This document shows positions 711 through 42,794 of a DNA stretch of 42,794 nucleotides, piece after piece (position 1 is the first letter of the stretch; the number at the start of each line of letters is the position of its first letter). The stretch is from assembly GCA_039932635.1 (NCBI GenBank), contig JBDTPR010000001.1:1-42794 (forward strand). Direction: 5' to 3'. Under the pieces are notes generated by a model. The model saw only the letters and a list, made by a program, of their open reading frames with translations, was not told where the DNA came from and made no database searches. The stretch is from Candidatus Solibacter sp. GTDB taxonomy: Bacteria; Acidobacteriota; Terriglobia; Bryobacterales; Bryobacteraceae. The position numbers were made by a program, and so were the translations under genes.

Positions 711-969
711 AGGCGGCGGTAGTTTCCTTGGACTTGCGGGCTTGCGAACCGGCTCGCTACAGGGCGATTCCTGCGACGACATCCTGACTCTGGCGGTGTC
801 TCGTGAGGTCCGTGAAAGTGAGTGTAACACGTTCGTCCGCAAGGCTCCGAACGCTGGTACGAGACGCTGGTACGGCGTGGTGGTATCTTCGACAAACCGC
901 GCATTCAATCGTGTTAAGCTCAGTTCCAAACGTGGGGAGCCGCTTTCTGTGAGCCCTGACCTCCTTCAG

Positions 970-10225: not shown

Positions 10226-13200
10226 ATGAAGTCTCCCCGGATGCGAGAGTTTACAAGAGGGGTCAAAAGGCGCCAGGTTGCGCTTCTGTTGTGTGTCAGC
10301 GCACTTTTCGCCGCCTTCCTCGGCAGCAATCTGCGCGGCGCGGAGGAGCCTCAACCGAACGCGTCAGCCCTGGTCAACAAGTACTGTGTGCAATGCCACG
10401 CCGGTGCGTCGCCCATGGGCGGCGTCAACCTGCAGCAATTGACGGCGCAAGCCTCCGTGGGCGAAAGCTACGCCATCTGGGGTAAGGTCGCGGGGGTGCT
10501 GGAAGAGCGCCGTATGCCGCCCAAGGGCATGCCGCAGCCCGCGGACAACGAGCGGGAGCAGGCCGCCAAGTGGATTCGCACCGAACTCGCCACCTACTTC
10601 AAGAAGCACGATGGCGACCCGGGCCGCGTTACGGTCCGCCGCCTCACCAGTGGGGAGTACGCCTACGCGATTCACGACCTCACCGGGATCGATCCGGATA
10701 CCGGCATCGAGGCCTCCAGCGATTCCGCCGGCGGCGAAGGCTTCACCAATTTCGGCGATGTGCAGTTCATGCAGGACGCCAACCTGGAGCGCTACCTCGC
10801 GGCCGCCAAGAAGATTGCCAATCACGCGGTGATCGGCAGCGGTCCGGTGGAATTCTACGTGGACCCGGGCAAGACGGGCTTCGAAATGTCCGCCATCACG
10901 CGGATCCGCGGCATCTACGCCAAGGAAGGTTTCCGTACCGTGTCGGGCGAAGGCGGCATTCCGTTCGGCCTTGAAAAATATGGCAAGGCTTTCTATGTGG
11001 CATGGCGGTTCAAGCATCGCGCCGCCATGGGAGAACCCAATGCCACGCTCAAAGAACTGGCCGCGCGCGAAGGCGTCGGCCTGAAATTCAGCCAGCACAT
11101 CTGGGACGTGGTCAATCACTCGGGACTCGGCTTCCCCTCTTCGGAAATGGCTGGGCGATGGCGCAAACTGCCGGCGCCGAGCGGCGCCGATCCCAATATC
11201 ACCGCGGCCGCGGCGAGACTCGGCTGCGAAGATATTCAGAAGTACCTCACTACGTGGCCCAGCTGGCTCTTCGGCCGGGGCGACGTGGCTGCCGGCGGCG
11301 CGGGCGATGAAAGTCCGCTGGTCTTCAACGACAAGTCCCTGAAGGCCGAAGCCGTACACCACTTCCTCTTCAATCGCGCCGGTCGCGGAGGCGGCTTTGG
11401 GCGCGGCGCCGCAGTCCAGACCGGGCCGCCGAAGCAGTTCCTCAATGTGGCAGCTCTCAACCCCAGCGCGCCCGGCAAATCCGTGATCGTCTGGCGCAGT
11501 CCGAGCGTGGGCTTCCGCGCTGCCGGTGCTCCTGGCGGTCGCGGAGGACGCAACCCCGGTACGCAGACCGCCGGCGGCGCCGCAGTCCCACCCGCCGCTG
11601 CCGTTCAGGCGAATACTGTTCAGCCCAACAATGGAGCAGGCGCCGGACAGACCGCCGCCGCGCTGCCCGCCGGTGGTGGCCGCGGATTCCAACCGGTCAT
11701 GCCGCGCGTGCCCCTGCGCGCCGCCGTCAGTGAGGAGACCGCCAAGCGCCTCAATTTCGGCCACAGTCCCGATGGCAGCCAGATTGGCCCCGACGATTTC
11801 GCCACCGAGGGCTCCGTGGCCTTCGAACTCGTGGTGCCCGACGGCTCCACGCTCGCCGACTTTATGGTGGACGCCGCCGTGGGCGCCGATCGCGATCAGG
11901 TCTTCCGCATCACGCTGAGCGATCGCGAGGAAGGCCCGCGCGGCATTCCGACGCGCGCCATCGTAGGCGATCCGGATAGCGCCGGCTACCGCAAATTCAA
12001 GGCCGGAGTTTTGGAGTTCGCCAGCATCCTGCCGCCGAATTCCAACAGCGAGCCCACGCCCGCCGACAAGGACCCCGTTCCCGAACCCTTTGACAGCACG
12101 TACAATACTCCCGAGCACGACGCCTTCGTCAACGACGTGAAGTATATTCGCGACGACCGTTTCGTCGTGGAACACATTGTGGATGACGCCACGCGCGCGC
12201 GCCTCAATTTTGCTTGGAATGATCTCAAGTCGTCCTTCTCGTACCACGACAACTACCTGCGCCTGCTCGCCCTGCATTACAACCTGGATCTCAAGGGCAA
12301 ACACATCGCCGATCTCGATAAAGCCACGGTGGATTCGCTTCCGGCGGAACCCCGCCGGTATATTGCGCCGCTGCACGCTGAGTACGTCGCCGTGCGCACC
12401 GCCGAAGCGGCCGCCCGCCCGCGTCACGTCGCCGATTGCCTGCAGTTCGCAGCCAATGCCTGGCGGCACGCGCTCTCCGAAAAGGAGAAGCAGGGCCTGC
12501 GCACTTTCTACGATAAGGCCATCACTACCGAAGGCGATCACGAAAAGGCCATACGCGCCTTGATCACACGCATCCTGGTCTCCCCGGCGTTCCTGTACCG
12601 CGTCGAGCAGCCGGTGGAAACCGCTGCGGCTCGCCCGCTCGGCAACTGGGACATGGCCAGCCGCCTGAGCTTCTTCCTGTGGTCCTCGATTCCCGATTCC
12701 GAACTGCAGCGAGCCGCCGCCGCCGGGGAACTCAGCGACCCGCAGCGACTGCGCGCGCAAGTGAAGCGTATGCTTGCCGACCCCAAAGCTCGCCGCCTCT
12801 CCACCGAATTCTTCGGGCAGTGGCTGGGCTTCTACCACTTCGATCAGTTCCGCGGCGTGGATACCGCGCGCTTCCCCGAGTTCACCGACGAAGTCAAAAG
12901 CTCCATGTACGACGAGGCCGTCTCGTTCTTCGAATACGTGATCCGCAAGGACCGTCCGGTCCGCGATGTCTTGTTCGCCGACTATGGCTTCCTCAATCAG
13001 CCGCTGGCCAAATTCTACGGCGTGAAGAAAGACGTTGCGTCGAAGGGCGCGGTCGAACTCGTGGAGGGTGCCGGACAGTTCCACCGCGGCGGTCTGCTGC
13101 GCCTCGGCGCCATCCTCACCGCCACTTCGGCGCCTCTGCGAACGAGCCCCGTGAAACGCGGCGATTGGGTGCTGCGCCGTGTACTCGGGACTCCCGTGCC

Positions 13201-13741
13201 GCCGCCGCCGGCCAACGTGGGCAAAATTCCGGAAGACGAAAAGGGCTTCGGCGAACTCACGCTGCGTCAGACGCTGGAAGCGCACAAGCGCAATCCCAGT
13301 TGCGCTGGTTGCCACGTGCGCATCGATCCGCTCGGCTTCCCGCTGGAACACTACGATTCCACCGGCCGCTGGCGCCAGACTTATTCCGATGGCAAGCCTA
13401 TCGACGATCAAGGCGTGCTCTCCGATAAGACAGAGATCGCCGGCATCGATGGCCTGCTCGGCTACCTCAAGGGTAAGGAAGATCAACTGCGACGCACCAT
13501 GGCCACCAAGATGGTGGGCTACGCGCTCGGCCGCACGGTGCAGGCCTCCGACCAGTTGCTGATCGACCGTATGGCCGCCACTGGCAACAACGCGACGTTC
13601 TCGCAGTTTGTGGCGGAAATTGTCGCCAGCCGCCAGTTCCGCAATCATGCAGGCCGCGACGACGCCCCGGCGCCATCGCCAGTGAAAACCGCCGCGGTAG
13701 CGGCCGTCAATTCAACCAAATCACAAGCAGGTGCACGATGA
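10226..13741 (+). CDS. DUF1592/DUF1588/DUF1587/DUF1585/DUF1595-type large secreted protein with CxxCH motifs
   Basis: Signal-like N-terminus ([16 protein letters not shown]). N-terminal CVQCH in a planctomycete-cytochrome-like context ([10 protein letters not shown]...GGVNL). C-terminal [16 protein letters not shown] block, typical of DUF1588. It is paired with a DUF1552 gene through an ATGA overlap. Confidence 0.85.
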
Positions 13742-15105
13742 AAAAGAGCCAGAACACTTCGACCGCCGGATCCAGTTCGCGGCGGCATTTCCTGCGCGGC
13801 GCCGGTGTGGCGCTCGCCCTCCCGTGGCTGGAATCGCTGCCCCTGTTCGCCCAGGACGCCGCGCCTGCCGCGGCCGCGGCGGCCAACAAGCCGCCCCTGC
13901 GCTTCGCGTGCATCTACTTCTCCAACGGCGTCGATACCCAAAATTGGTGGGCCAAGGGTAGCGGCGCCGCTATGGAACTGGGACCGGCGGCGGCTCCGCT
14001 TGCACCTATCCGCGAGGACATGGTGTTCATCAAGGGCCTCTACCATCAGACTGCCCTGGTCTCCACCAGTCCTCACCTGGGCCGCATGAACATGCTCTCC
14101 GGCGTGAAGGTGAGCCTGGACCCGAACGACATTCGCGTGGGCGCCACCATGGACCAGGTGATGGCGCAGCACCGGGGCCACGAGACCGTCGTGCCGAGTC
14201 TCGCGCTCGGCATCGAGCCCAATGAACTGCGGCTGGAAGATGGGCTCTCCATGCTGTATGGTTCGGCGATCTCCTGGATGTCGGCGACCAAACCAGCTTC
14301 CAAGGAAATCTACCCGGCGCGAACCTTCGACCAATTGGTGGGCGATGGCAAGGGCCGGAAACTCGACCGCAGCGTGCTCGACGCGGTGCTTCAGGAAACC
14401 CGCGACCTGCAGCCGAAGATCAGTAACGGCGACCGCAGGAAATTGGACGAATATCTGGAATCCGTGCGCGATATCGAAAAGCGCATCGATCGCGCCGGCA
14501 AACAGGAATTGCTCGAAGGGTGGCGTCCCACGCTCCAGCAGCCCAACATGCCGCGACCCTCCGACGAGTTGCCGCAGAATCCGCCCGAGCACATGAAGCT
14601 CATGCTCGACCTGATCGTGCTCGCCTTCCAGATGGACAAGACGCGCATCGTCACCTGCATGTTGAACAATGACCTCTCGCAGATGAATTTCAAGTTCGTC
14701 GACGGCGTGCGCGGCGCGTTGCATCTCGACCTCACACACGGCAAGACGGCCGCTACCAAAGCGATGTACCTGAAGACCAATCAGTTCCACATGCAGCAGC
14801 TCACTTACATCGTGCAGCGCATGAAGCAGATCGATGAAGGCGGCCAGTCGCTGCTGGATAATTCGATGCTGATGTTCGCCTCCAGCCTCTACGATGGCGA
14901 CTTGCACGGCGCCGACCAGATGCCGATCATCATGGCAGGCAAGGCGGGCGGCGCGATGCAGACCGGCCGCGTCCTGGATTACCTCGATAAGGGCAACGAC
15001 AATCGGCGCGCCTGCAGCCTCTATCTTTCGATGATGGATCGCATGGGTGTGAAACTGGATCGCTTCGGAGATACCGACAAGCGTCTCCCTGGCCTGTTTA
15101 CATAA
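13738..15105 (+). CDS. DUF1552 domain-containing protein, Tat-exported
   Basis: [23 protein letters not shown] is the typical N-terminus of this family. The protein is 455 aa and its start overlaps the upstream stop (ATGA at 13738-13741). Confidence 0.85.
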
Positions 15106-23419: not shown

Positions 23420-25397
23420 CCTCTTCGCCCCAGATGTATTTGCTGAACCACTCGTAGTTGTGTTCCATCACGGCGCGCTGTTGCTTGGGCTTGTTGATGG
23501 GGTGTCCGAAACCCTTGTAAAGCACGAGCTTTGCGGGTACCTTGCGATCCTGCAGCGCCTGGAATAGTTCGAAGGCGTTGGGCGGCGGCACGCGCTTGTC
23601 CTGGTCGCCGTGCTGGATCAGCGTCGGCGTCTGCGCGCGGTTCACGTAGGTGATCGGCGAGGTCTTGCGATAGATCTCCGGGTCGTCCCACGGCGTTCCC
23701 TTCAGGTATTGGCGCGTGAATGGGTGTATGTCGGTGTTGACGTAATACGTCATCCAGTCGGAGATGCCCGCGCCCACGCTGACGGCCTTGAAACGGTCGC
23801 TATAGCATGTGATGAACGCGGAGATGTAGCCGCCCTGGCTCCACCCCATGGCGCCGACGCGGTCCTTATCGACCATGCCTTTGGCGATCAGCATGTCGAC
23901 GCCGGTGATCACATCGTCGTAGTCGCCGAGCCCGAGATTGCGCACATTGAGCGCGCGGAACTTTTCGCCGTAGCCCGCGGACCCGCGGTAGTTCGGCCTC
24001 AGGATCACGGCACCCTTGGCGGCGAAGCGCTCCACCGGATAGTAACGGTCGTCCGACATCATGGGCCTGTCCACACCGGTGGGTCCACCGTGGATCACCA
24101 CCAGGAGCGGGTACTTGCGCGTGGCGTCGAAATCGGCTGGCTTGATCAGGATGCCCTCGATGGTGGCTCCGTCCTTCGACTTCCACGACACCACTTCCCG
24201 AGTGGCCAGCTTGTAGTCCTTGTACTGCGCGCTCATGTCCGTAAGGTACTTGGGGGCAAAGTCGCTCACTGGCGAGACGAAGACTTCGGTGAAACGATTA
24301 GGCGACGCGCCGGAAGCCGCGAGGGTGCGGTGGTCCTTCGTGAACGATGCGCCGCCGATTTGATAGGCATCGGGGCCGCTGATGCGACGCACGGCCTTAG
24401 TCGCAGGGTCGATGCGGAAGAGATGCGAGGCGGTCTTCTGCGAGGCTGCGAAATAGATGCCCTCGGGCGCCCACTCAATCAGGCCCGGGTTCTCGTCGAA
24501 TTCCTGAGAGAGGATGCGCGGCTTGCCGCCTTCGGCCGAAATCACCGCAAGGTAGCTATTCGTAAAGAAGAAAAACTCCTGCCCGTTCGATGTCACGTAC
24601 GCGATCTCTTTACCGTCCGGCGACCACTTGGGGCTGCCGTTGGGTCCTGGAGTGTCGAGCAGTTTCTTGACGTGCAGATCGGCCAGGTCGAGCACGTAGA
24701 GCGTCTCGGTCTGGCTCGAACCCAAGTCGGGATCCTTTGCCGCGCTGAACGCGATACGCTTGCTGTCGGGCGACCATGAGAACGAGTTCACGCTATACGT
24801 CTCGCCCTTGGTGAGCGGTTCCGCCTTGGGTAGTTTCTTGCTATCGGCGGGCACGTCGGCCGGGACCTTGACGCGCCACAAGTGATTCATCTGGTAGTCG
24901 CCGCCGATCACGTCGAACTCGCCGTACTTCTCCTTGCGATCTTTGCGCGCCTTCTCTTCCGGGCCTGAGGAAGTGAACGCGATCGCGCTGCCATCGGGCG
25001 CCCAGGCGATGCCGCCGACGCCGTTCTCCTCCGCGGTCAGCACGCGCGCCTCGCCGCCTTGGGGTGAGATCAGATAAATCTGCCGCTTGCCGTCGCGATC
25101 GCTGACGAAGGCCAGTTGCCGCGAATCGGGCGACCACTGCGCGCCGCCTGCCGATTTCTTTCCGCTGGTCAGCTGATAACGCTCGCCGGTAGCAGGCACG
25201 GCGATCCAGATCTGGGTGACGAATTCGTTCTGGTCCCAATTGGCCTGCGTCACGGTGTACGCGACGTAGCGTCCGTCGGGTGAAATCTGAGCGCCGCCCA
25301 CGGACTTCATGCCGAGCGATTCATCGATGGTGGGCACCGTGCCGGCCGTCAGGGCAACAGCGCCCAGCACCAGGGCGAGTGAGAGTTGAATGCGCAT
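23394..25397 (-). CDS. S9 family serine peptidase (prolyl oligopeptidase / acylaminoacyl-peptidase type) with N-terminal beta-propeller
   Basis: Signal peptide MRIQLSLALVLGAVALTA. Repeated '(I/W)SPDG...' propeller blades (e.g. ISPDGRY, WSPDSRQ, WAPDGSA). Catalytic GWSQGGY, with downstream Asp and His (HGDQDKRVP, GFGHPI). The 3' end overlaps the convergent GH127 gene by 26 nt. Confidence 0.9.
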   Translation of the reverse strand: MRIQLSLALVLGAVALTAGTVPTIDESLGMKSVGGAQISPDGRYVAYTVTQANWDQNEFVTQIWIAVPATGERYQLTSGKKSAGGAQWSPDSRQLAFVSDRDGKRQIYLISPQGGEARVLTAEENGVGGIAWAPDGSAIAFTSSGPEEKARKDRKEKYGEFDVIGGDYQMNHLWRVKVPADVPADSKKLPKAEPLTKGETYSVNSFSWSPDSKRIAFSAAKDPDLGSSQTETLYVLDLADLHVKKLLDTPGPNGSPKWSPDGKEIAYVTSNGQEFFFFTNSYLAVISAEGGKPRILSQEFDENPGLIEWAPEGIYFAASQKTASHLFRIDPATKAVRRISGPDAYQIGGASFTKDHRTLAASGASPNRFTEVFVSPVSDFAPKYLTDMSAQYKDYKLATREVVSWKSKDGATIEGILIKPADFDATRKYPLLVVIHGGPTGVDRPMMSDDRYYPVERFAAKGAVILRPNYRGSAGYGEKFRALNVRNLGLGDYDDVITGVDMLIAKGMVDKDRVGAMGWSQGGYISAFITCYSDRFKAVSVGAGISDWMTYYVNTDIHPFTRQYLKGTPWDDPEIYRKTSPITYVNRAQTPTLIQHGDQDKRVPPPNAFELFQALQDRKVPAKLVLYKGFGHPINKPKQQRAVMEHNYEWFSKYIWGEEVTASTEMQ

Positions 25398-25413
25398 TCC
25401 TGAAACTAGCCGA

Positions 25414-25527
25414 TGCGGCGTGTGGTGTCAACGCCCTCCTGCTAGCAATTGTCCGCGGGCAGTTTCCTTGCCGTTGCGGCGGCTGGTGTCAACACCATCC
25501 TGCTTGCAGCAGTCCGCGAGCAGTTCC
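25414..25527. promoter_or_regulatory. two tandem imperfect ~53-nt repeats in a divergent promoter region
   Basis: Unit 1, 25414-25467: tgcggcgtgtggtgtcaacgccctcctgctagcaattgtccgcgggcagtttcc. Unit 2, 25475-25527: tgcggcggctggtgtcaacaccatcctgcttgcagcagtccgcgagcagttcc. Each unit carries GGTGTCAAC(G/A)CC and a TGCTAGCA / TGCTTGCAGCA palindrome-like core. Confidence 0.5.
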
Positions 25528-25653
25528 ATGCCGGGGTGGTGGGACTGCGCGCGATGCTGGAAGCATGCCGGCCGCGCCGACCACAGGCGGTACTGGAACG
25601 TGGGAGTACTGCGAGGGGTTGTATGGCGTCGTGCGGCACCCGGTAATGGGAAC

Positions 25654-26118
25654 GTGCTCTCTCTTCTTTTGTTCTTTGCGGCAGCCGGCAGTGGTGCGCC
25701 CGTGGTTGGCCGGCCGGTCAAGGCGGTCGGCGCTTGCTCCGCGGTGACCGCGGTCGATGTGGAGCGCGCCCTTGGGCGGCGATTTGCGCGCGGCAATGAA
25801 GAGGTGCGCGGGGCGGATTCGACTTGCGACTACGCGTCGGGCACCGGGCAGGTCTCGATCACGCTGCAGAGGCTGCGCGCGCCGGTGAATCTTGCAGTAG
25901 AGATCGCGAGCTTGAAGAAGGAAGTCGAGGACTCGTCGGTGAGGCTGGCTCCAGAATTCGGCGGCTTCTTTTTGGATATCGCGGGCGCCGGCACGCAGTT
26001 GCACGTGATTCGCGAAGATCGCGAGTACGTGATGATTTCGATCCTGGGCTTTGGGGATGCGGCGCAGGTGTCGGCTGCGGCCGAACGCTTGGCGAAAATC
26101 GCGTTGGGACGGTTGTAG
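25654..26118 (+). CDS. hypothetical small exported protein (start uncertain)
   Basis: This is the 3' part of ORF 25390..26118. The in-frame GTG at 25654 gives VLSLLLFFAAAGSGAPVVG..., a hydrophobic N-terminus. No family is recognised. Its stop lies 2 nt from the convergent stop of the next gene. Confidence 0.4.
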   Translation: MLSLLLFFAAAGSGAPVVGRPVKAVGACSAVTAVDVERALGRRFARGNEEVRGADSTCDYASGTGQVSITLQRLRAPVNLAVEIASLKKEVEDSSVRLAPEFGGFFLDIAGAGTQLHVIREDREYVMISILGFGDAAQVSAAAERLAKIALGRL

Positions 26119-26120
26119 CG

Positions 26121-29100
26121 CTACGGAGCGGTCGCCCACAGGCAGAGTGAATCGGTGTAGGCAGCGGAGCCGTCGCGGAGCCAGGCATCCAATTGGGCGG
26201 GCTCTTTTAGTTGCTGGCCTCGCTGGCGAGGGACGCCGATGAAGCGGCAGTCGAGTTCAGGCAACGCGGTCATATCTCCCCACAGCTTCTCGAATTGCGC
26301 TACCGGGAAGACATCCTCCTGGCCCTTGCCCCAGCGCTTCTTCACGTCCTTCAGCGTGATGTAAGTGGGCATGCGAGCGGCCACCACGCGCACCGCGTCG
26401 TTGACCCGCGCGATGTCGGAGAGCATCTCTCGCGTCAACCCGAACACTCCGAGCGTGCGATCGATATCCAGCCAGTACGTGGCGCTGTTGTAGTACGACA
26501 TGCGCGATTCCAACTCGTCGTTGGGCAGCGCCAGGCCTTCCACCAGACGCACGCGATCGTCCACGCGCGCGAGACCTCCGCCGCGATCCTCCAGGTGGCG
26601 CGCGATTACTTCCGTGGTCATTGCGGCGCCGCTCGCGATATGCTGGCCGAGAATCGTGGCATCCACGTCCACCGCGGCAGTGTCGATGTTGTGCACCAAA
26701 AGGTAGTTCAAACGCGGGCGCTGTTCCAGCAGGCGCAGTAGCGTGCCATTGCGCAAGAGATTGGGCACTTCGTACCAATGCCCCACCGGATGCAGGCACT
26801 GCATCGGCAGATTGTCGGTGTAGTTCGAGCCTTCGCCCGCCTGCGTGGCCCACTTAATGAGCGCCGCGCGCAGCCCTTCGCGGACCTTCTGTGCCTGTTC
26901 GTCGAGCATCTGCTGCGCCATTTCCTCCCACGCAAACCGCAGGTCGCGCTCCATGGGGATCATGCGCAGGCCGATGACGCGGCCGGGCGATAGCAGCAGC
27001 GGCCCCGGATAATTGTGGTTGGCTTCGCGTTGCAGGTGCTGCGCGATGGCGTCGTGGGTCAGGTAGCTTGTGGTGACGACGTGCGGCAGCAGCGTGCCGC
27101 ATTCGCGGCCCACGCGCAGGCTCTTGGCGAGATGAGTCTCGATGAAGTTGCGATGGCGGCCGCCGAGTTTGCAGAACGGGTTGAGCGCTTTCACAGCGCC
27201 CGCGCCCTTGGTCCAACGGCTGCCCACCCCGCCGGCCAGGGTGACCACGGCGACGCGCCCTTCGGCCAATGCCTGCGCGCCGAGCGCGCGATGGCGCGGG
27301 TCGAGTACATCAGGTACGGCATCGTCGATCCGGCTGGTGCCCGGCAGGCGATTCTGCGCCAGGCCGATACGTCCGGAGTGCAGCTCGGATTGAATCTGCT
27401 CGTGCTGCATGCGATCGAAGCCATGGGTCTCGAGCAGGGCTTCGAGCGTCTGGGTGCGGTCGGCCTCCTGATTCTGCGCGCGCGGCAGCAGATGGTCGAA
27501 GAGGTTGTGCACCATACCGGAGAAGTCTTCCACGGTACGGCAGGCGGCCGTGAAGCGCTCGAGTTCGGCGCGGCGCCCGGCGGAGAGATTGCGGCTCTCG
27601 GTGCGCAGCAGTGGAGGCACGGCGAGGGTGTAGTAGCCGGCGGGCATCAGCGCGTCTTCACCGCTGAGCAGAACGGCCTGCGTACCGCGCTCGTTGATGG
27701 CGAAATTGTAGACCACGGGCTCCATGGCGAAGGGCACGCTGCGTTCCATGGCGCGCTTGGTTTCGCTCATGATGACCTGCATGCGCTGCTGCGCTTCTTC
27801 CTTGCGCCGCGGGTTGAAGAGGAAGCCCATGCCGCCGCCCGACATCCCGCCGAGCATCCAGAAGCCCCAAAAATCGTCGCCGAATTCGGCGCGCGTGCGA
27901 CGGATCAAGGTGTCTGTGTAAAGGTTGCCGGCCCACGGAATGATGGTCTGAATGGGCCCGTCGAAATTTTTCTGCGTGCACGCGCCCACCGCGTCGATTT
28001 CGCCGCGTTCCAGATGGCCGAGCACTTCGTCGAGAATGCCGATGGCCTGCTTGCGGCCAAGCCATTCGGTTTCGGAGCGCAGCAGGTATTTCTCGGTGAC
28101 CATTTCGAGAATGGGGCCAACGTCCTGCGCCATGCCGCCATGCACCAGCACGAGACTCTCTTGCAATTTCTGGCGCGTGGCGGCAGGCACGCGATCTTCG
28201 CCGAGGATGTCGTGATTGGGCAGCAGGCGTCCGCGGCTGATGCCGAATTCGGGGTCGCCCTCTCCGGCCAGCACGCCGTGAATCACCTTGATGCCGGGCC
28301 ACACGCCGCCGGAATCCTGCCAGCCGCCGCCGCTGCCGCCGAGCCACTCGCCGAGGATCGCCCGGGCGGCCACGAGGCGGCGGTCAGGCTCTTCGAGCGA
28401 CCCCGTGAGCGCGTGAATCTGATTGGTGGCGCGCATGCACACCGAGATCAGGCAGGCCAGCAGATTGGTGGACACGGCGAGCCGCGAACCCTTGGGAATG
28501 TCGTTCACCTTGCTGACGATTTCAATGCCGTGGCCGGGCTTGCCGGTGAGGCGTGCGAGGAGGTCGGCGAGCGGCTGCGTGGCGCCTTCCAGCCCCGGCG
28601 GCACGAGTCCGCTGGCGATCACCGCGGCCTTCAAGAGGCCGAGGTAATCGCGCGCGAAATCGAAGACCTCCGCGATGGATGTGACGTCGGCGGAGGCTTG
28701 CAAATCGACGCTGGTGAGACGCAGGACAGGCTCATCGATCACGCGGAAATAGGCTTCGACCGGCGGCTTGGGCGAGGCATTCTGCGTGTTGCCGCGCACC
28801 GCGAGGTCGATGGAGATATTGAGGACGCGCGCTCCCTCCGGGAAGTCCATGCCGAGGAAAAAGATGTCGCTCCAGCCGCTGTGGGTGAGGTCCATGCGCA
28901 CAGGAGTGGTCTCGCGCAGAATGGGGAACGACGGCGCGCCCTCAAGGAGTTCGGGGCGCAGGCGAAGCGGATAGTCGGCGGGATGCCCGGTGCGGAACAT
29001 CCACTGGTTGCCGCGCACGCTGCGTACGCTGCGGCGCACCTGGTCGGCGAGTGTCTGGAAGGCGACGGATTTGTAGCCCGCGGCGAGCGCGCTGGAGATG

Positions 29101-29429
29101 GCGGCGCTCGGCCCGTGGGCGGCCTGTGCGGCGAGGAAGAGATCAATGGCTTCTTCGAAGCGTCGCTTCAGCAAATTGTTGTAGCCGGCGAAAGGAATCG
29201 CGGCGGGCGCGGCGGCGGCGGGGCGCAGCGGAATGTGGAAGCGGTGGATTGCGTAGAGGAAGAAGAGGGCTCGTACGCGCTCGTAGAGGTTGTCGCTGGC
29301 GCGGCGGAAGCGGTCGAGCGCCTGGCATTCGGCGAGCAGTTCGTCAAGCGAGAGATCGCGGCACAGGGCGTCGAGCGATTGATCGCGTGCCTCGCCCGCG
29401 GCCGTAATCACGTCGGTGAGCAGGCTCAC
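26121..29429 (-). CDS. 1102-aa fusion: unknown N-terminal region + GHMP-kinase (fucokinase-like) module + UDPGP-type nucleotidyltransferase module
   Basis: GTG start overlaps the upstream stop (GTGA at 29426-29429). Residues ~300-580 carry the GHMP order: motif-2 position [15 protein letters not shown] (degenerate versus PxGSGLGSSA), [12 protein letters not shown] (the GGGWQDQ block of fucokinase-type kinases) and [13 protein letters not shown] (motif 3). Residues ~700-1102 carry [22 protein letters not shown], a UDP-sugar pyrophosphorylase L-A-G-G-x-G-[ST]-R signature. Confidence 0.85.
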
Positions 29430-30274
29430 TGGCGGCTTCCTCCCGCTGCGGTGCGCAATTCGCGATCGGCGAGAAGTTCGAGGAGTTGCGAGAGCACCTG
29501 GACGCGGTCCTCGCCGTTGAGTGCGAGTGCGAGTTGGGCGACGAGGAGCCCGTAGCGCGCGCCCAGATCGTACCGCCGGCCTTCGTCTTCAAGGGCGAGG
29601 TACTGCTCGTTGCGCGCTACTTCGGAGAGCGCGGCGGAGAGAGTGGGCACGCCCTGGGCGAGGACCTCCATGACGTGCGGGGTGAGCACATGAATGCCGA
29701 AGTAGCAGAGGTAGTAGCCGGCGCGGATGCCGGAGACCATGAGACGCTGTTCCGCCTCCGTGGGCGTTGGCTTCTCGATGATGGTGTCGATGCGATAGAG
29801 GTCGCTGCGGCCTTCGATGCGTCGGCCGGCGACCGTGCCGAAGCGCGGCAGCAAACTCTCGCGAGTGGGCTGTACGCCGCTGACCGAACACTCGGCGGCT
29901 TCAGCCAGCGCGACCAGGCGGTGCGTGGAGGGCTCGGCGCCGGTGGAGATGTAGAGATGATCGCCGACCATGTGGAGGAAGGGGTCGGCGCCGGTGAAGT
30001 CGCGGGCGCACAGGATGGCGTTGCCGTAGCCCGCGGGCGTGGGTTGGGCGACAAAGCGCACGCTGGAGGCGTGGCGCCCGGCGGCGTCGGCGTAGCGCGC
30101 CTCGTCGCCAGGGAAGACGACGACGCAGATCTCCTCTATGTTGGCGGCGAGGGCCTGCTCGATGAGGATACTGAGGACAGGCTTCTCCTGGCCGTCGCGA
30201 TCGATCAGGGTTTGAAGCGGCAGCGCACGCTGGCTCTGGCCGGCCGCGGTGATGACAGCTTTCTTGATGCGCAA
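29426..30274 (-). CDS. sugar-phosphate nucleotidyltransferase-fold protein (GalU/RmlA-like) with degenerate signature
   Basis: [21 protein letters not shown]... aligns to the K-A-V-I-P-A-A-G-x-G-T-R-x-L-P opening of GalU-type enzymes, but reads G-Q-S-Q-R. The 282-aa length fits the family. It is translationally coupled to the 1102-aa fusion gene. Confidence 0.75.
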
Positions 30275-30358: not shown

Positions 30359-31792
30359 CTATGCCAACATCTTCTGCACGACCTTGCCTTCCACGTCGGT
30401 AAGGCGGAAATCGCGGCCCATGTGGTGCACCGTGAGACGCGTGTGATCCAGCCCCAGGCAGTGGAGCAAGGTAGCCTGGAGGTCGTGGACGTGGACTTTG
30501 TCTTCCACCACATTCATGCAGAGGTCGTCGGTCTTGCCGACTACGGTGCCGCCCTTGATGCCGCCGCCCGCCATGAAGAGGCTGTAGGCGAGCGGATGGT
30601 GGTCGCGGCCCGCATTGTTAGCGTCGCGCGGATTGCGGATCTCGCACATCGGCGTGCGCCCGAATTCGCCGCCCCATACGACCAGCGTATTTTCGAGCAG
30701 GCCGCGCTGCTTGAGATCTTTGATCAGCGCCCCTGTGGGCTTGTCGGCGACATCGCAATGGGTCTTGAGCTTGCGATTGAGATCGGTGTGGTCGTCCCAA
30801 CTCGCATGGTTGAGCATGACGAAGCGCACGCCGCGCTCCACCATGCGGCGGGCCAGCAGGCAATTGGTCGCGAACTGTTTGGTGGGGTCCTCATTGACGC
30901 CGTACATGGCGAGCGTCTCAGGACTTTCCTTCGAAAAATCGAGAAGTTCGGGGGCCGCCATTTGCATGCGGAAGCCGAGCTCGTAGGAGGAGATGCGCGA
31001 GGCGATCTCCATATCGCCGGTGTTGGTGTAGTGCTCCTCGTTGAGATCCTTGAGCACGTCGAGTTCGGCGCGCTGCATCTCGCGGGTCACGCCCGGAGGA
31101 TTCGAGAGGTAGAGCACGGGATCGCCCGCGCTGCGGAAAACCACGCCCTGATAGGTGGATGGCAGATAGCCGCTCGACCAGTTGGAAGTGCCGCCGCTGG
31201 TGCCGACGCCGGAACTCAACACGACGAAGCCGGGCAGGTTCTGCGACTCGCTGCCGAGGCCGTACAGCGTCCACGCGCCCATCGTCGGACGACCCACCTG
31301 TATGCTGCCGCCGAAGAGCATTAACTGGCCGGGATGGTGGTTGAACGCGTCGGTGAACATGGAGCGCACCAGGCAAAGATCGTCGGCGCAGCTTCCGATA
31401 TTGGGGATGAAGTCGGAAAACTCCGTGCCACTCTGGCCGTGCGGCGTGAAGATGCGCGGACTGCCGAGTACGGCGGCGTTGGGCTTGGTAAACGCCAGAC
31501 GCAGGTCTTTGGTGAGTTCGGCGGGCAGCGGCTTACCGTGCCACTTCTGGAGTTCGGGCTTGGGGTCGAAGAGATCGATCTGGCTGGGTCCGCCCTCCAT
31601 GAACATGAAGATGATGTTCTTCGCCTTGGCTGGGAAATGGGCTTTGCGGGGAGCTAGCGGATTCTGTTCGACGGCGGCGGCGCGCGCGTCCTGCTCCAGC
31701 ATCTGCGCGAGGGCGATGGTGCCGATGCCGCCCGCGCAATCGCGGAAGAATTTGCGGCGGGATTGAATCCTGCGGAATTGTTCCAAATCCAT
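30359..31792 (-). CDS. DUF1501 domain-containing protein (sulfatase-fold), Tat-exported
   Basis: Tat leader QSRRKFFRDCAGGIGTIALAQ. Family blocks NIIFMFMEGGPSQIDLFDPKP and GRDHHPLAYSLFMAGGGIKGG. It starts 4 nt after the stop of the PSCyt/DUF1553 gene. Confidence 0.9.
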   Translation of the reverse strand: MDLEQFRRIQSRRKFFRDCAGGIGTIALAQMLEQDARAAAVEQNPLAPRKAHFPAKAKNIIFMFMEGGPSQIDLFDPKPELQKWHGKPLPAELTKDLRLAFTKPNAAVLGSPRIFTPHGQSGTEFSDFIPNIGSCADDLCLVRSMFTDAFNHHPGQLMLFGGSIQVGRPTMGAWTLYGLGSESQNLPGFVVLSSGVGTSGGTSNWSSGYLPSTYQGVVFRSAGDPVLYLSNPPGVTREMQRAELDVLKDLNEEHYTNTGDMEIASRISSYELGFRMQMAAPELLDFSKESPETLAMYGVNEDPTKQFATNCLLARRMVERGVRFVMLNHASWDDHTDLNRKLKTHCDVADKPTGALIKDLKQRGLLENTLVVWGGEFGRTPMCEIRNPRDANNAGRDHHPLAYSLFMAGGGIKGGTVVGKTDDLCMNVVEDKVHVHDLQATLLHCLGLDHTRLTVHHMGRDFRLTDVEGKVVQKMLA

Positions 31793-31796
31793 GGCG

Positions 31797-34355
31797 TTAG
31801 TCCCTTGTGATGAATTCGTCCAGATTGAGGAGGACGCGGCTCAACTCGACCCAGGCCGCGGCTTCGGCCTGCGGCACACCTTCCAACTGGTTGGGGAAGA
31901 GCGCGGGCACGGTCTGCGGATTGGCGGTGAGGCGGCGGCTGGTCTCATCGAAAAACTTGCCCAGACGCTCAGCCTCGCGCTGCGAAGGTTCGCGCGCCAG
32001 CGTGATCGCGAAGGCATGATTGAGACGCTGGCGGAAACCGCCCGACGCCTCGCGCATGATGCGGAAGGCGAGCGCCTGCGAAGCTTCGAAGAAGACCGGG
32101 TCGTTCATCAGGTTGAGCGCTTGCAGCGGAGTGTCCGTGCGCTCGCGGCGCGAGCAGGAGAGGCTGGCGGAGGGCGCATCGAAGCTCATCAACTGCGGAT
32201 AGGGTACGGTGCGCTGGAAAAGAATGTAGAGGCCGCGGCGATAGCGATCGGGGCCGGTGCTCTCTTCCCACTTCACGCTGCCGTTATACGAAAGCTCGGC
32301 GACACCCTTAGGCTGCGGCGGCCTCACGCTACGGCCACCGATGCGCAGATCCAGCAGTCCGGCGGCATAGAGCGATTCGTCGCGGATGAGTTCGGCGGGC
32401 AGGCGCAGGCGCGACTGGCGCGCAAGCAGCAGATTGTCGGGATCCTTCGCGGCGAGCTCGGGGCGGGCCTTCGAGCTCTGGCGATAGGCCGCGGACGTCA
32501 CCATCAGGCGGATCATCTGCTTCGTGCTCCAGCCGCGCTGAATGTACTCGGAGGCCAGCCAGTCGAGCAGTTCGGGATGGGTGGGACGGTCGCCCTGGGT
32601 GCCGAAATCTTCGCTGGTGAAGACGATGCCGCGTCCGAAAACTTCCTGCCACAGGCGGTTGACTGCGACGCGCGAAGTCAGGGGGTGCTCGGGCGAGACC
32701 AGCCAGCGGGCCAGTCCGAGACGGCCGGTTTCGCGGGCGGGCATGGGCGGTAGCACGGCGAGCGTGCCGGGTTGCACTTCGTCGCCGCGCTCGCGCCAAT
32801 CGCCCTTGACGTGAATATAAGTCTTGGGCGGCGTGTCGTTCTCGATCAGCACGGGGGCATAGCTGACGGGCGGCAATTTGGCGTTCAGCTCGCTGAGCTT
32901 GGTGCGCAATTCGGCGATCTTGAGCGCGTCGCAGTACTCCTTCCCATAGAGGTTGCCGCAGGAACCCAGGAAGACATCGAGCATCGCGTTACGCTGCAAT
33001 TCGGTGCGTTTCGCGGGGTCCAGGAAGAGCACCTTGCGAGCGTTATCGACAGTGTGGGTGAACTCGCCGTAGGCGAAATCCCAATCGTCGTGGGTGCCGG
33101 GATGGAGCGCCGAGTCGCGGAGTTTGGCTTCGTAATCCACCAGGTTCTCGGGGATCTTATACTCGGCGAGCAGCGCCTGTTTCTTGAGGTCGAATTCGGG
33201 CTTGGCGGTCAGGTAGGGGCCGAGTTCGCCGGGCAGCGGCGCCTGGACGTTGACCTCTTCCTGGGTGTTGAAGTAGGCGGTGAGTTGATAGAACTCTTTC
33301 TGGCTGATGGGGTCGTATTTATGGTTGTGACACTGCGCGCAGCCCACCGTGAGTCCCATCCAGACGGTGCCGAGAGTGGCCGCGCGGTCGAGCACTTGCT
33401 CGTCGCGGAACTGCTCGGGGTCGGTGCCGCCTTCGCGATTGGTGAGCGTGTTGCGATTGAAACCGGTGGCCACCAGAGTGTCGAGATTGCGTTGCGGCAG
33501 CAGGTCGCCGGCGAGTTGCTGCGTGGTGAACTGGTCGAAGGGCAGGTCGCGATTCAGCGCGTCGATCACCCAGTGGCGGTAGCGCCAGGCCCAGGGACGC
33601 GCGCGATCTTTTTCGTAGCCGTCGCTATCGGCATAGCGCGCGAGGTCCAGCCAGTACCGCGCCCACTTCTCGCCATAGTGCGGCGAATCGAGCAGACGGT
33701 CCACCATGCGCTCGTAAGCGTCGGGCCGGGCATCGCCCATGAAATCGCGGACCTGTTCGGGCGTCGGCGGCAGGCCGGTGATGTCGAGGCTGACGCGGCG
33801 AAGCAAAGTGAGTTTGGGTGCTTCGGGCGAAGGCGCGATGCCTTCCTTGTCGAGGCGCGCGAGGATGAAATTGTCGATGGCGTTGCGCGCCCATTTGGTG
33901 TTGCGGACAGCGGGCGGGGCGGGGCGCTGAATCTTCTGGAAGCTCCAGTGCGGCGCGCGGGCTGTCCACTCGACGCCCTGGTCGATCCACGCGCGCAGCA
34001 GTCCGACTTCAGCGGCAGTCAGGTGCGCGCCCATGGGAGGCATGAATTTGTTGTCCACGCCGGCCACGCGGTGAATCAGGCGGCTATCGGCGCTCTTGCC
34101 GGGGACGATGTCCTTGCCCGCGGCGCCACCCTTGAGCGCGGCGTCGTTTTGATCCAGGCGCAGGCCGCTCATCTGCTGCTGCGGGCCATGGCAGGCGTAG
34201 CAGCGTTTAGCGAGCAGAGGCTCGATATCGCGGGCGAATTCGATCTTGGCGGTGGCGGCAGGCGGCAGCGCGACGTCGGCGGCACGTAGCGGCACAAATG
34301 CCGTCAGGCAGACGAATGTCCCACCCAGTATCCCCAGTCTCAGCATCGCACCCAT
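31797..34355 (-). CDS. PSCyt1/PSCyt2(DUF1549)/PSD1(DUF1553) planctomycete-cytochrome-type large protein
   Basis: Preferred start is MGAMLRLGILGGTFVCLTAF at 34355; the ORF extends to 34463. Blocks: FARDIEPLLAKRCYACHGPQQ (PSCyt1), ARNAIDNFILARL (DUF1549), GCAQCHNHKYDPISQKEFY, and a DUF1553-like C-terminal half. Confidence 0.9.
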   Translation of the reverse strand: MGAMLRLGILGGTFVCLTAFVPLRAADVALPPAATAKIEFARDIEPLLAKRCYACHGPQQQMSGLRLDQNDAALKGGAAGKDIVPGKSADSRLIHRVAGVDNKFMPPMGAHLTAAEVGLLRAWIDQGVEWTARAPHWSFQKIQRPAPPAVRNTKWARNAIDNFILARLDKEGIAPSPEAPKLTLLRRVSLDITGLPPTPEQVRDFMGDARPDAYERMVDRLLDSPHYGEKWARYWLDLARYADSDGYEKDRARPWAWRYRHWVIDALNRDLPFDQFTTQQLAGDLLPQRNLDTLVATGFNRNTLTNREGGTDPEQFRDEQVLDRAATLGTVWMGLTVGCAQCHNHKYDPISQKEFYQLTAYFNTQEEVNVQAPLPGELGPYLTAKPEFDLKKQALLAEYKIPENLVDYEAKLRDSALHPGTHDDWDFAYGEFTHTVDNARKVLFLDPAKRTELQRNAMLDVFLGSCGNLYGKEYCDALKIAELRTKLSELNAKLPPVSYAPVLIENDTPPKTYIHVKGDWRERGDEVQPGTLAVLPPMPARETGRLGLARWLVSPEHPLTSRVAVNRLWQEVFGRGIVFTSEDFGTQGDRPTHPELLDWLASEYIQRGWSTKQMIRLMVTSAAYRQSSKARPELAAKDPDNLLLARQSRLRLPAELIRDESLYAAGLLDLRIGGRSVRPPQPKGVAELSYNGSVKWEESTGPDRYRRGLYILFQRTVPYPQLMSFDAPSASLSCSRRERTDTPLQALNLMNDPVFFEASQALAFRIMREASGGFRQRLNHAFAITLAREPSQREAERLGKFFDETSRRLTANPQTVPALFPNQLEGVPQAEAAAWVELSRVLLNLDEFITRD

Positions 34356-34537
34356 TATATTCCCCGCGGGGCAGGAGTATCCTAACCGCTTTCCCGATCC
34401 GCATCGCTCCCGCAGTGGGTGGTGGCTTGCCGCCCATTTAAAAAGGGCTACGCTGCTTAACAAAGCTTTCCGCCGGCGTCGACATTGTGCGGGCTAAACG
34501 GGCGGCGAAAAGCGGCGTGTGCTGCGTCAGCAATAGT

Positions 34538-36907: not shown

Positions 36908-40893
<3,986 letters not shown>

Positions 40894-40897
<4 letters not shown>

Positions 40898-42794
40898 ACA
40901 GCCGCCTCTTTATCAACCGATAGGTGTTGATTACCCAGTAAGGACTCGGCCAATGCCAGCAACAGCACTGCCAGCATGACATACCACCATAATGACACCG
41001 GTTTCTGTTCCTCGCCGGTGGTGTTGCTCCCCGTGACCGTTCCCTGTGCTGTGTTTTGCCACAAACTCAGGTTGTCGTTCGTGACCGGTGTGAGATCGCT
41101 CTCGTGCCGGTCGGCATTCACGGCCACCAGTTCGTTGCGCCCGTTGGGCCGGCGGATATCGTAGAAACCCGCCATCGTGTACTGAATGTTCTGGGCCTTC
41201 GTAGCCTCTTCCAGGGAAAGTGCGCGTTCGCCCTTGGGGTCCAGCACATCCACGGCGGCGCCCTTTTCCTTGGAATCGCGCAGTTCGCCGAAGCCGCCGA
41301 CCAGCACCATAGCCGGTCCCGCGTCGAGGTGTCCGAGATAACGCGCCGTCTGCTCGATGAATGGGACGAAGGACGGATGAATCGGGAAATCGTTAGCTAC
41401 GTTGTCGAACGTGGAGCCGAAGATCAGCACGTGGCCTTCGCCAAGTTGTTGATCGATCAGAACCGGGGTCTGGTCGCTCAGCTTGGCGACGACCCGTGCG
41501 TTGCCCGGAGCCACGTGGATCGCCTGATAGAACTTGACGCCTTCCCAACGGTCGTCCTTAAGAATCGAAGGGTGCGAAGCATCCAGCCATGCGGCAGTTT
41601 GAAAACGCTCGCCCTCGCGGCCGGCGTAACGGGTTTCCGTAATCGCGTCGCCTGTGACGGGGACTTTACTGCGGCCCACCGAAAGGCTGCCGAGCGAGAT
41701 CAAAACGCTGCCGCCGGCGCGCACGTAATCGCGCAGGGCACTCTCGAAAGTGGGCGGTACGGCGCCGATGTTGCTAAGGACGACGAACGCGTACTTATTG
41801 GGCGCCACGTTGGCCACCTGGTCCACGGTGGCCTGATCGATCTCGAAGGCGGATTGTCCGGCGGCTTCGAGTGCGGCTTTGAAGAAGACGAGTGCGCGGC
41901 TGCCGGTGTTTTCCTGTACGAAGAGCGCGTGGCGGGGATCGCTGCGCTCCACGGAGAAGTAGAAGCTGTCGTCGGCCGGAAGGGGGTCGGCGGTATCGAT
42001 CCGCACTTCGCCCTTATTGCGGCCGTACGGCACGTCGAGAGAGAGGAATTCGACCGTGGCGCGTCCGTTCTCAGGAACTTCGACCTGCTTGGATTCGGTG
42101 ACGCGGCCGTTCAGGCTGAGCGACACGGTGCGCGTGGCCTTTTTGTTGGCAAAGCCGGCCACCGTGACCAGCACACGGGTCTTCTTGGCGTCGTATACGC
42201 GGCGCGGCGCGACCACGTTTTCCACCGTGAAGTTGCCGGTCTCCTTGGCTTCGATCGGGTGTGGATTGAGTTTGATGGCGTTGCTGAGGCGGATGTCGTT
42301 GAAGTTCGCCGGCCAACCGGTCGCCTGCATGTCGGAGTAGAGTTCGACGGCCAGCGGGAGTTTGAGGGACGTGGCGATGGAGCGCACGGAGCGCGAAAGT
42401 TCGCCGTAGGACGTGCGGGCATCGCCGGCCTCGATGGAATCCACCGCGGCGTTGAGCGAATTGTGATCGTCGGTGACCTCGCTGAGGACCGCCACGCGGG
42501 AGCCGAAGGCGAGCACCTGCGCGCGCTGTCCCACGCGCAATCCGCCGATCACGGCTTTGGCCGCCGTCTTGGCCTGCGAGAGGCGAGTGCCGGTGCGCAT
42601 GCTCAGCGAATTATCGATGGCTAGTACGGTGACTTCGCCGCTCCGCTGGGAGGCCACGATATTCTGGCGCACGTAGGGGTGGGCGAAGGCAAGAACGAGG
42701 AGCAATACCAGCAGGGCGCGCGCCGCGAATAGCAGCAGATAGCGCAGGCGGCGGTGCTTGATGGAACTCTGCGTCCGCTTCTCGAAAAACATCA
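40894..42794 (-). CDS. BatA-N/vWA domain protein (5' end truncated by the window edge)
   Basis: The ORF is open to the window end. The first residues, MFFEKRTQSS...RRLRYLLLFAARALLVLLLVLAFAHPY, match the segment after the first TM helix of BatA-N (TIGR02226-type) proteins ('FSSLMF...'), so the true start is probably outside the window. A vWA MIDAS motif is present (VTVLAIDNSLSMRTG), followed by a long C-terminal region and a C-terminal TM helix (WWYVMLAVLLLALAESLL). Confidence 0.85.

Follow-up and report, generated by a model that had tools for sequence, protein, structure and literature searches.

What does a protein do that carries a sugar-kinase fold and a UDP-glucose pyrophosphorylase (UGPase) fold on one chain? 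The question is raised by a gene for a protein of 1102 amino acids (aa) in contig JBDTPR010000001.1 (assembly GCA_039932635.1) of Candidatus Solibacter sp. (Acidobacteriota), of which we analysed a stretch of 42,794 nucleotides (nt), hereafter the window. The gene had been described before by a model that saw only the letters of the DNA (the sequence-only reading). We propose, with a probability of about one half, that an active anomeric kinase with an L-fucose-like pocket feeds the fused UGPase-type pyrophosphorylase to yield a UDP-sugar or another nucleoside diphosphate (NDP) sugar, and that a small GalU-like partner encoded directly upstream is a second catalytic or regulatory nucleotidyltransferase subunit. 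The fusion protein is a variant of the known type of bifunctional sugar-1-kinase/NDP-sugar pyrophosphorylase, set apart by its breadth of distribution, its conservation and its fixed loops. Its distinguishing traits are the fixed non-canonical loops in both proteins and the obligatory second nucleotidyltransferase.

Domain architecture of the fusion protein

The open reading frame given by the sequence-only reading is exact (minus strand, GTG start; Table 1), and all the peptide strings that it quoted are present in the translation. Its proposal of a fucokinase-like GHMP kinase fused to a UDPGP-type pyrophosphorylase is borne out by matches in Pfam, NCBIfam, the PDB and Foldseek, both homologies being statistically supported in profile searches. 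In Pfam, the whole protein matched UDPGP (PF01704) only, with 37.4 bits against a gathering score of 22, and the isolated C-terminal third reached 40.9 bits. In NCBIfam, residues 174-558 matched the kinase part alone of PRK13412 (FKP; model positions 613-952, E = 1.6e-17), the whole-protein cutoff of this model not being reached (62.5 vs. 721 bits). A single-sequence search of the PDB returned FKP (E = 1e-7) and UGPases (E = 1e-5). With a profile of 12 diverse relatives, the E-values were 1e-16 for FKP and 2e-23 for the UGPase of Aspergillus fumigatus, the UGPase match consisting of two stretches, the nucleotide loop and the catalytic core.

An AlphaFold model from 27 close homologues had a predicted local distance difference test (pLDDT) of 48.6, and was replaced by an AlphaFold2 (AF2) model from a 36-sequence alignment reaching down to 30% identity (pLDDT 91.0, predicted template modelling score 0.89). 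This model contains a two-lobed alpha/beta domain (169-590) and a C-terminal alpha/beta domain (705-1095). Foldseek aligned it in the PDB with full-length FKP (E = 2e-19, 587 aligned columns), with the FKP kinase part (9iip; template modelling (TM) score 0.83, E = 1e-17, 437 aligned columns), with the Burkholderia heptokinase WcbL (4usk; TM 0.81) and with many UGPase and UDP-N-acetylglucosamine (UDP-GlcNAc) pyrophosphorylase structures (E about 1e-13, TM 0.55-0.60).

These searches corrected the domain map to residues 1-168, 169-590, 591-704 and 705-1102. An N-terminal region of about 300 aa had previously been set apart as unknown. The N-domain is really about 168 aa long and all-helical, and the second of the strings quoted for it proves to be GHMP motif 1, aligned with PVRIDMAGGWTD...NLAIEL of FKP. 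This helical N-domain co-aligns with the GHMP module in all relatives, giant fusions included. Going by alignment length alone, namely the 150 extra columns matched to full-length FKP, it may be the counterpart of the three-helix linker of FKP.

Distribution and conservation

The database search yielded more than 8000 homologues of about 1100 aa, which are named either 'UTP--glucose-1-phosphate uridylyltransferase' or hypothetical. We also scanned one genome per GTDB species and found a relative in at least 559 species. The neighbour and identity figures reported here come from the best 80 of these at least 559 loci, which are full length and 63-89% identical to the query; being the loci most similar to it, they bias the identities upward. 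They cover eight phyla (Acidobacteriota, Chloroflexota, Verrucomicrobiota, Planctomycetota, Armatimonadota, Bacteroidota/Rhodothermales, Myxococcota and Moduliflexus), the labels of metagenome-assembled genomes being taken as given; one locus label, 'Akkermansia muciniphila', looks doubtful. An exhaustive search of representative sequences retained 2723 clusters at E<=1e-3 and 677 at E<=1e-30. Further named members come from Ca. Sumerlaeaceae (53% identity), from Omnitrophota and from the oxymonad eukaryote Blattamonas nauphoetae (KAK2962578.1).

The mean identity of the large protein is 0.70-0.73 within a phylum and 0.67 between phyla (minimum 0.59), and that of the partner is 0.63-0.66 and 0.59, respectively. 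Recent horizontal transfer as the only source of such high identities is possible but gains no support from this structuring by phylum. In our judgement, such a level of conservation is expected only of core machinery. An origin in a defence system was rejected, as PADLOC gave no match for either protein and the distribution is not sporadic. Full-text literature searches found no paper on this kinase-pyrophosphorylase architecture, nor did literature and database searches find a characterised family with a defined product.

The kinase module and its variant phosphate loop

The kinase domain of FKP, the L-fucokinase/GDP-L-fucose pyrophosphorylase of Bacteroides fragilis (PDB 5YYS, 9IIP, 9IIT; PRK13412), is the closest match to the GHMP module in both sequence and structure. 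In FKP, Asp762 is the general base, Arg592 and Mg2+ stabilise the transition state and Glu751 is essential, the mutants D762A and E751A being inactive (PMC11982464). L-fucose is contacted by Arg592, Trp599, Asp601, Thr602, Gly759, Gln761 and Asp762, and loop 712-720 binds the triphosphate, with the backbone of the motif 2 glycine helping to bind the ATP phosphates and Ser719 and Ser720 lying at the metal site (PMC11982464).

On alignment, Arg592, Trp599, Asp601, Glu751, Gly759, Gln761 and Asp762 of FKP correspond to R178, W186, D188, E361, G369, Q371 and D372, Thr602 to I189, and Ser719/Ser720 to S320/T321. The catalytic aspartate and the other mapped catalytic residues survive, and it is the phosphate loop that varies. 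Six of the seven L-fucose contacts are identical (the sole exception is Thr602 to I189), a measure of pocket similarity and not of proven specificity. As FKP is inactive when Asp762 or Glu751 is replaced, E361 and D372 are residues that a kinase needs. In an alignment of 80 species from the eight phyla, R178, W186, D188, E361, G369, W370, Q371, D372 and the glycines 531-533 of the Gly-rich loop of motif 3 are all invariant (80/80).

The motif 2 loop, G314 to T321 (GSRLAVST), is equally invariant in these 80 species. It departs from the canonical PxGSGLGSSA: the central glycine is Arg316 and the next glycine Ala318, followed by Val319, where FKP reads IPAGSGLGTSS. No segment of the protein is better conserved than the GHMP N-lobe, which carries this loop: over 79 species its identity to the query is 78.5%, compared with 68% in the UGPase module and 55.9%, the lowest value, in the linker. 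Because the loop is invariant and lies inside the best-conserved segment, its sequence points to selection rather than drift on motif 2. The sequence-only reading had called motif 2 degenerate: the loop is indeed non-canonical in sequence, but a loop identical in 80 of 80 species is not decaying. A variant under such strict selection, beside a complete catalytic set, argues for a functional active or ligand site and against a relic.

In the most divergent clade (P0152, P0158 and P0182; 30-35% identity), motif 2 reads IPKGSGLAVST, and Pfam GHMP_kinases_N gives a weak match. Since this clade keeps the glycine at position 316, Arg316 is a derived and fixed state of the main clade, and 'AVST' is ancestral to the whole family.

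The pyrophosphorylase module

The motifs of the C-terminal module pair with those of the A. fumigatus UGPase (Table 1). The last two pairs were aligned by eye: their spacing differs by one residue and the HMMER alignment is shifted there. The nucleotide loop, HPxGH, HNIDT, DRGGG, YYNSxTxW, QFEKLWG and RxRGQQLK are kept across relatives, with R738, K747, H884, N914, D916, D948, Q1045 and E1047 invariant (80/80) and K1075 present in 79/80. In the profile search of the PDB, the matches to UDP-glucose enzymes are many orders of magnitude better than those to UDP-GlcNAc enzymes. Judged by these residues, the module looks catalytically competent and UGPase-like.

A coupled partner gene and a two-gene unit

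Directly upstream of the fusion gene lies a translationally coupled gene that the sequence-only reading had overlooked (Table 1). Its product best resembles GalU (TIGR01099, E = 7.8e-24), with 84.7 bits against a cutoff of 326.8, which is not reached. The alignment behind our profile search of the PDB with the partner included Escherichia coli GalU and is circular for GalU; its E-values were left unused. The partner retains R16, D105, the EKP lysine (Lys168) and D236. Its signature loop is not the canonical GxGTRxLPxTK...PK of GalU; in 71 genomes it reads ITAAG-x-x-Q-R-x-LPLQTL-x-DRDG, a variant fixed across phyla.

Of the 80 loci, 73 include at least 900 nt upstream of the fusion gene, and in 71 of these a partner homologue (>=287 bits) stands just upstream in the same orientation. 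The two genes overlap by exactly 4 nt in 26 of these 71 loci, and also in loci L001-L005. The same arrangement is found in a Terriglobales-like contig, in Solibacter usitatus and in a Ca. Sumerlaeaceae genome. The partner is the only recurrent neighbour in the main clade, where no other gene family occurs in more than 3 of the 80 loci; a pathway inferred from conserved neighbours was therefore ruled out for this clade. Linkage to a GmhA-type isomerase or to a bisphosphate phosphatase does not recur among the 80 main-clade loci and is absent from the window. The surrounding window genes are unrelated (S9 peptidase, GH127, homogentisate pathway genes, aldo-keto reductase, sulfite reductase and a collagen-repeat protein), so that a standalone two-gene unit fits. 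Promoter and terminator scans gave nothing above shuffled sequence.

The fusion had previously been seen as an FKP in reversed order. A permuted FKP is ruled out because the pyrophosphorylase families differ: the C-terminal module belongs to the UGPase family (PF01704), and the N-terminal guanylyltransferase of FKP to another. The label is also inapt because the partner, standing immediately upstream, restores the FKP order. The operon keeps the succession of nucleotidyltransferase, helical segment and kinase, and adds a UGPase module.

In two database proteins, P0157 (1096 aa) and P0210 (1122 aa), the large protein is preceded by a partner-like N-terminus; rather than true fusions, these are probably chimeras that arose from a frameshift or from assembly at the 4-nt overlap.

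Several other genes adjoin the unit in some loci. In L001 (11432-15451), L002 (5870-9889), L003 (11393-12761) and L004 (4591-5971), it is immediately followed by structural and maturation genes of a [NiFe]-hydrogenase (HycI, cytochrome b, large and small subunits; HypC, HypD). This adjacency concerns the Terriglobales-like contig and S. usitatus, not the window, and may be lineage synteny or coincidence. In L004, HypD is followed, where a Hyp gene would be expected, by a gene for a GmhA-like phosphoheptose isomerase (5972-6577; SIS_2; PRK13936 at 151.6 bits, below cutoff), 1.5 kb downstream of the S. usitatus fusion gene. In three loci (L052, 5276-8887, and two others), a protein of about 1160 aa is encoded just downstream of the unit; its N-terminus may resemble pyrophosphate-dependent phosphoenolpyruvate carboxykinase.

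Divergent relatives and giant fusions

In the Gly316 clade, the gene for P0182 (locus L089) is preceded by genes for a beta-phosphoglucomutase-family HAD hydrolase and a GmhA-like SIS isomerase, and that for P0152 (locus L088) is followed by genes for a ROK kinase and a PPDK-like enzyme. GT2 and radical-SAM genes and a xylose-isomerase-like TIM barrel surround P0158. In the GDP-heptose route, GmhA is followed by the GHMP kinase WcbL/HddA, acting at O1, then by a phosphatase and a nucleotidyltransferase (PMC4691232). The neighbourhoods of the Gly316 clade resemble this NDP-heptose logic and support a reading of the core as a true catalytic pair of kinase and pyrophosphorylase. The heptose-type accessory genes are absent from the main clade, where the GalU-like partner stands in their place.

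Among the larger relatives, the core of N-domain, GHMP and UGPase modules is joined by ROK sugar-kinase domains and a domain of the inositol-monophosphatase family in P0141 (2318 aa), and by a ROK domain in P0162 (2939 aa). The gene for P0135 (Omnitrophota), which has Arg316, is coupled to one for a giant protein that carries UDP-glucose/GDP-mannose dehydrogenase domains. Neither this giant protein, encoded upstream of P0135, nor any of the Omnitrophota and Gly316 loci contains a partner-like domain. Pfam returned nothing useful for those parts of the giant Omnitrophota fusions that have no assignment, or for the extensions of P0135 and P0148.

The giant Omnitrophota-type proteins (P0141, P0162/P0271 and P0135; loci L006 and L090) all contain this core, span 1343-3096 aa and have N-termini resembling signal peptides or membrane anchors, which is odd for nucleotide-sugar enzymes. 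Locus L006 also encodes a 7976-aa HAD/Glycoamylase protein.

Comparison with known systems

Kinase-pyrophosphorylase fusions are an established design, represented by FKP (PMC11982464) and the zebrafish GKUP (PMC3938481). FKP, its relatives FKGP of plants and AFKP80 of Leishmania, zebrafish GKUP and HldE all differ from the fusion protein in domain families or in domain order. FKP shares with our system a kinase and a pyrophosphorylase, the mapped catalytic and fucose residues except Thr602 and, counting the partner gene, the order of nucleotidyltransferase, helical segment and kinase. It differs in that its own guanylyltransferase is N-terminal and bears a beta-helix, whereas the fused pyrophosphorylase is here C-terminal and UGPase-type; the position of the FKP nucleotidyltransferase is held by a separate GalU-like protein, and motif 2 has Gly/Gly/Thr in FKP where we find Arg/Ala/Val.

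HddA/WcbL, which acts with GmhA, GmhB/WcbN and HddC/WcbM, belongs to the same subfamily of GHMP anomeric kinases. Only in the divergent Gly316 clade do the neighbours, a GmhA-like isomerase and a HAD phosphatase, recall this system. In the main clade, the isomerase and phosphatase are not linked; there is no match to WcbL at the sequence level, and the nucleotidyltransferase is UGPase-type, not HddC-type. In HldE, the kinase is N-terminal and the nucleotidyltransferase C-terminal, as in the fusion protein. HldE is also bifunctional (PMC4691232), but its domains are of unrelated folds.

The C-terminal 400 aa have the fold and motifs, catalytic lysine included, of eukaryote-type UGPases (PDB 8C0B, 7PPR, 2ICY, 5WEG), with only about 17-19% identity and about 40 extra residues between the aligned blocks (roughly 825-870). 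The salvage pathways of plants and protists follow the same logic, a GHMP sugar-1-kinase acting before a PF01704 UDP-sugar pyrophosphorylase, but with separate proteins. Zebrafish DrGKUP does fuse a GHMP sugar-1-kinase to a nucleotidyltransferase for UDP-sugar salvage; its N-terminal pyrophosphorylase is a short NTP_transferase of bacterial type, its kinase resembles glucuronokinase, and its authors could not demonstrate the pyrophosphorylase activity (PMC3938481). As for the partner, it is most similar to GalU, for which a non-catalytic counterpart, GalF, exists, and it keeps the key residues of GalU. It differs from GalU in its loop (AAGxxQRxLPLQTLxDRDG), in a score far below the cutoff and in its obligate pairing with an 1100-aa protein.

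Proposed function and alternative readings

We propose that the fusion gene encodes the large subunit of a self-contained two-gene module for sugar activation. The GHMP domain, of the fucokinase/heptokinase subfamily, would phosphorylate the anomeric hydroxyl of a sugar held in a pocket resembling the L-fucose pocket of FKP. The sugar-1-phosphate would be channelled to the C-terminal UGPase-type domain of the same polypeptide, which would react it with UTP or another nucleoside triphosphate to give an NDP-sugar and pyrophosphate. The coupled GalU-like protein would be a second nucleotidyltransferase subunit, catalytic or regulatory in the manner of GalF, and would most likely assemble with the large protein. 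The GSRLAVST loop would be a selected functional variant of the main clade and not a sign of inactivation. We favour kinase activity because the catalytic residues of FKP are conserved and because the sister clade keeps GSGL together with neighbours of the kinase-to-pyrophosphorylase type. As the sequence-only reading had also held, the specificity for sugar and for nucleotide cannot be read from the sequence.

Several observations weigh against this proposal. To our knowledge, the motif 2 glycine that Arg316 replaces is kept in essentially all active GHMP kinases, and ATP binding may be altered or lost through this change. Pfam GHMP_kinases_N (PF00288) gives no match in the main clade. The signature loop of the partner is non-canonical, as in inactive regulatory paralogues. 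The main clade lacks pathway context, no phosphatase, isomerase or glycosyltransferase being consistently linked. Finally, neither a between-phylum identity of about 67% nor a need for two pyrophosphorylases is expected of a canonical salvage enzyme.

Some of these observations would be accounted for by a pseudokinase, as the sequence-only reading had suggested. The GHMP domain would then be a sensor of a sugar or sugar-1-phosphate, like Gal3p, that controls the fused UGPase, and the partner would be a non-catalytic regulator like GalF or GMPPA. The key glycine of the phosphate loop is changed to arginine, a second glycine to alanine and a threonine to valine, all fixed; Pfam fails on the main clade and weakly detects the clade with Gly316; the partner, too, is without the canonical GxGTR...K pattern, and the very high conservation fits a tightly packed regulatory complex. 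Arg316 also lies where the FKP loop contacts the phosphate of fucose-1-phosphate, and could clamp a sugar-1-phosphate ligand. However, the general base D372, Arg178 and the Mg-site residues E361 and S320 are invariant, and a pure binding domain would have no need of them. The sister clade with the canonical glycine shares the overall architecture, so that the ancestral state was probably catalytic, and the partner keeps R16, D105, Lys168 and D236. We consider a pseudokinase possible but unlikely, and do not favour it.

We find less probable an exchange of the Leloir type, in which two opposed pyrophosphorylases would recycle UTP and pyrophosphate within a complex, converting UDP-glucose and a sugar-1-phosphate into a UDP-sugar and glucose-1-phosphate, in place of a GalT-type transferase. 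Pyrophosphorylase reactions are freely reversible. Such an exchange would explain why a kinase occurs with two different pyrophosphorylases and why a partner is needed in the main clade only; both pyrophosphorylase modules are closest to UDP-glucose enzymes, and a standalone operon would need no further pathway genes. Nevertheless, the opposite directions, the complex and the UDP-glucose co-substrate are a purely logical construction, and the variant loop of the partner may mean that it is non-catalytic.

A more far-reaching idea, which we hold to be improbable to about the same degree, is that the pair forms a hetero-oligomeric three-site enzyme, spread over at least 8 bacterial phyla as well as Sumerlaeota, Omnitrophota and an oxymonad eukaryote, whose Arg-bearing GHMP loop would do chemistry new to the superfamily. 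This might be the use of a non-ATP phosphoryl donor such as pyrophosphate, or the clamping of a sugar-1-phosphate for hand-over between opposed pyrophosphorylases. If so, the pair would make a UDP-sugar, or catalyse a nucleotide exchange, that lies outside textbook bacterial sugar-nucleotide metabolism.

Least likely is a route of the HddA/WcbL type in the main clade, with the GHMP domain phosphorylating C1 of a sugar phosphate to a bisphosphate that an unlinked phosphatase would process before the UGPase domain acts: in structure, WcbL matches almost as well as FKP (TM 0.81), the Gly316 clade is associated with a GmhA-like isomerase, HAD/inositol-monophosphatase-type phosphatases and a ROK 6-kinase, and a GmhA-like gene lies downstream of the unit in S. 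usitatus, but the main-clade profile matches FKP at 1e-16 and does not match WcbL in the PDB, the contacts of FKP to free fucose are kept, and neither phosphatase nor isomerase is conserved near the 80 main-clade loci. The three rivals (pseudokinase, exchange and HddA/WcbL-type route) overlap.

The supply of sugar nucleotides determines which glycans a cell can build, and the fusion enzyme and its partner are carried by at least 559 species from phyla that are abundant in soil, freshwater and the gut (Acidobacteriota, Chloroflexota, Verrucomicrobiota, Planctomycetota and others). Identification of the product could reveal a new activated sugar, or a salvage or exchange route, in poorly cultured phyla, and would correct a widespread misannotation. 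A naturally fused kinase-pyrophosphorylase could serve in one-pot chemo-enzymatic synthesis of nucleotide sugars, as FKP already does. The fixed change from Gly to Arg offers a clean test case for how the phosphate loop of GHMP kinases is remodelled without loss of selection on the active site.

Table 1. Features of the two-gene unit: positions in the window, and motif correspondences of the pyrophosphorylase module
Feature	Position	Strand	Basis or remark
Fusion gene	26121..29429	minus	GTG start, 1102 aa, stop codon 26121-26123; open reading frame call
Helical N-domain, residues 1-168	28926..29429	minus	AF2 helices only; no Pfam match at E<=10
GHMP-kinase fold, fucokinase/heptokinase subfamily, residues 169-590	27660..28925	minus	NCBIfam, PDB, Foldseek
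GHMP motif 1, residues 176-188 (R178, W186, D188)	28866..28904	minus	aligns to FKP P590-D601 (PVRIDMAGGWTD)
Variant phosphate loop (motif 2), residues 312-321	28467..28496	minus	aligns to FKP 711-720 PAGSGLGTSS
GGGWQD, residues 367-372, putative general base D372; E361 just upstream	28314..28331	minus	aligns to FKP G757-D762
Helical inter-domain linker, residues 591-704	27318..27659	minus	AF2 secondary structure, pLDDT; disordered loop 650-658
UGPase-type (PF01704) pyrophosphorylase module, residues 705-1102	26124..27317	minus	Pfam, profile vs. PDB, Foldseek
Nucleotide-binding loop, residues 731-747 (R738, K747)	27189..27239	minus	aligns to UGPase LNGGLGTSMG...K
Putative catalytic-Lys motif, residues 1066-1075 (K1075)	26205..26234	minus	by-eye match to VPRRRFLPVK
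Partner gene, 282-aa GalU-like NTP_transferase with variant loop	29426..30274	minus	Pfam NTP_transferase; directly upstream
Coupling junction	29426..29443	minus	GGAGGA Shine-Dalgarno 29443-29438, 8-nt spacer, GTG 29429-29427 overlaps TGA 29428-29426 (GTGA)
LAGGVGSRW...K747			A. fumigatus UGPase LNGGLGTSMG..K
HPVGHW			A. fumigatus UGPase PPGHGD
HNIDT (SNIDNLGA in P0158)			A. fumigatus UGPase SNADNLGA
EDRGGG			A. fumigatus UGPase DVKGGT
YYNSATYW			A. fumigatus UGPase FNTNNIW
QFEKLWG motif			A. fumigatus UGPase QLETAVGAAI
RxRGQQLK (K1075)			A. fumigatus UGPase VPRRRFLPVK

Other features of the window

A 242-aa open reading frame without Pfam match (25390-26118, plus strand) occupies the 723-nt gap between the S9 peptidase and fusion genes. 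It runs towards the fusion gene, and 2 nt separate its end from the stop codon of that gene. Planctomycete-type pairs (DUF1592/DUF1588/DUF1587/DUF1585 with DUF1552, and DUF1501 with PSCyt1/DUF1549/DUF1553) are encoded at 10226-15105 (plus strand) and 30359-34463 (minus strand), and a DUF1501/DUF1553 pair also adjoins the two-gene unit in S. usitatus (L003). At 36908-40897 (minus strand), where the AT skew is strongly negative (-0.29 to -0.37), lies a gene for a collagen triple-helix repeat protein of 1329 aa; a gene for a VWA-domain protein upstream of it (40894-42792, minus strand) overlaps it by 4 nt. Finally, an operon at 742-4304 (plus strand) encodes a circularly permuted ATP-grasp and Alpha-E protein (897 aa), followed by a transglutaminase-like protein.

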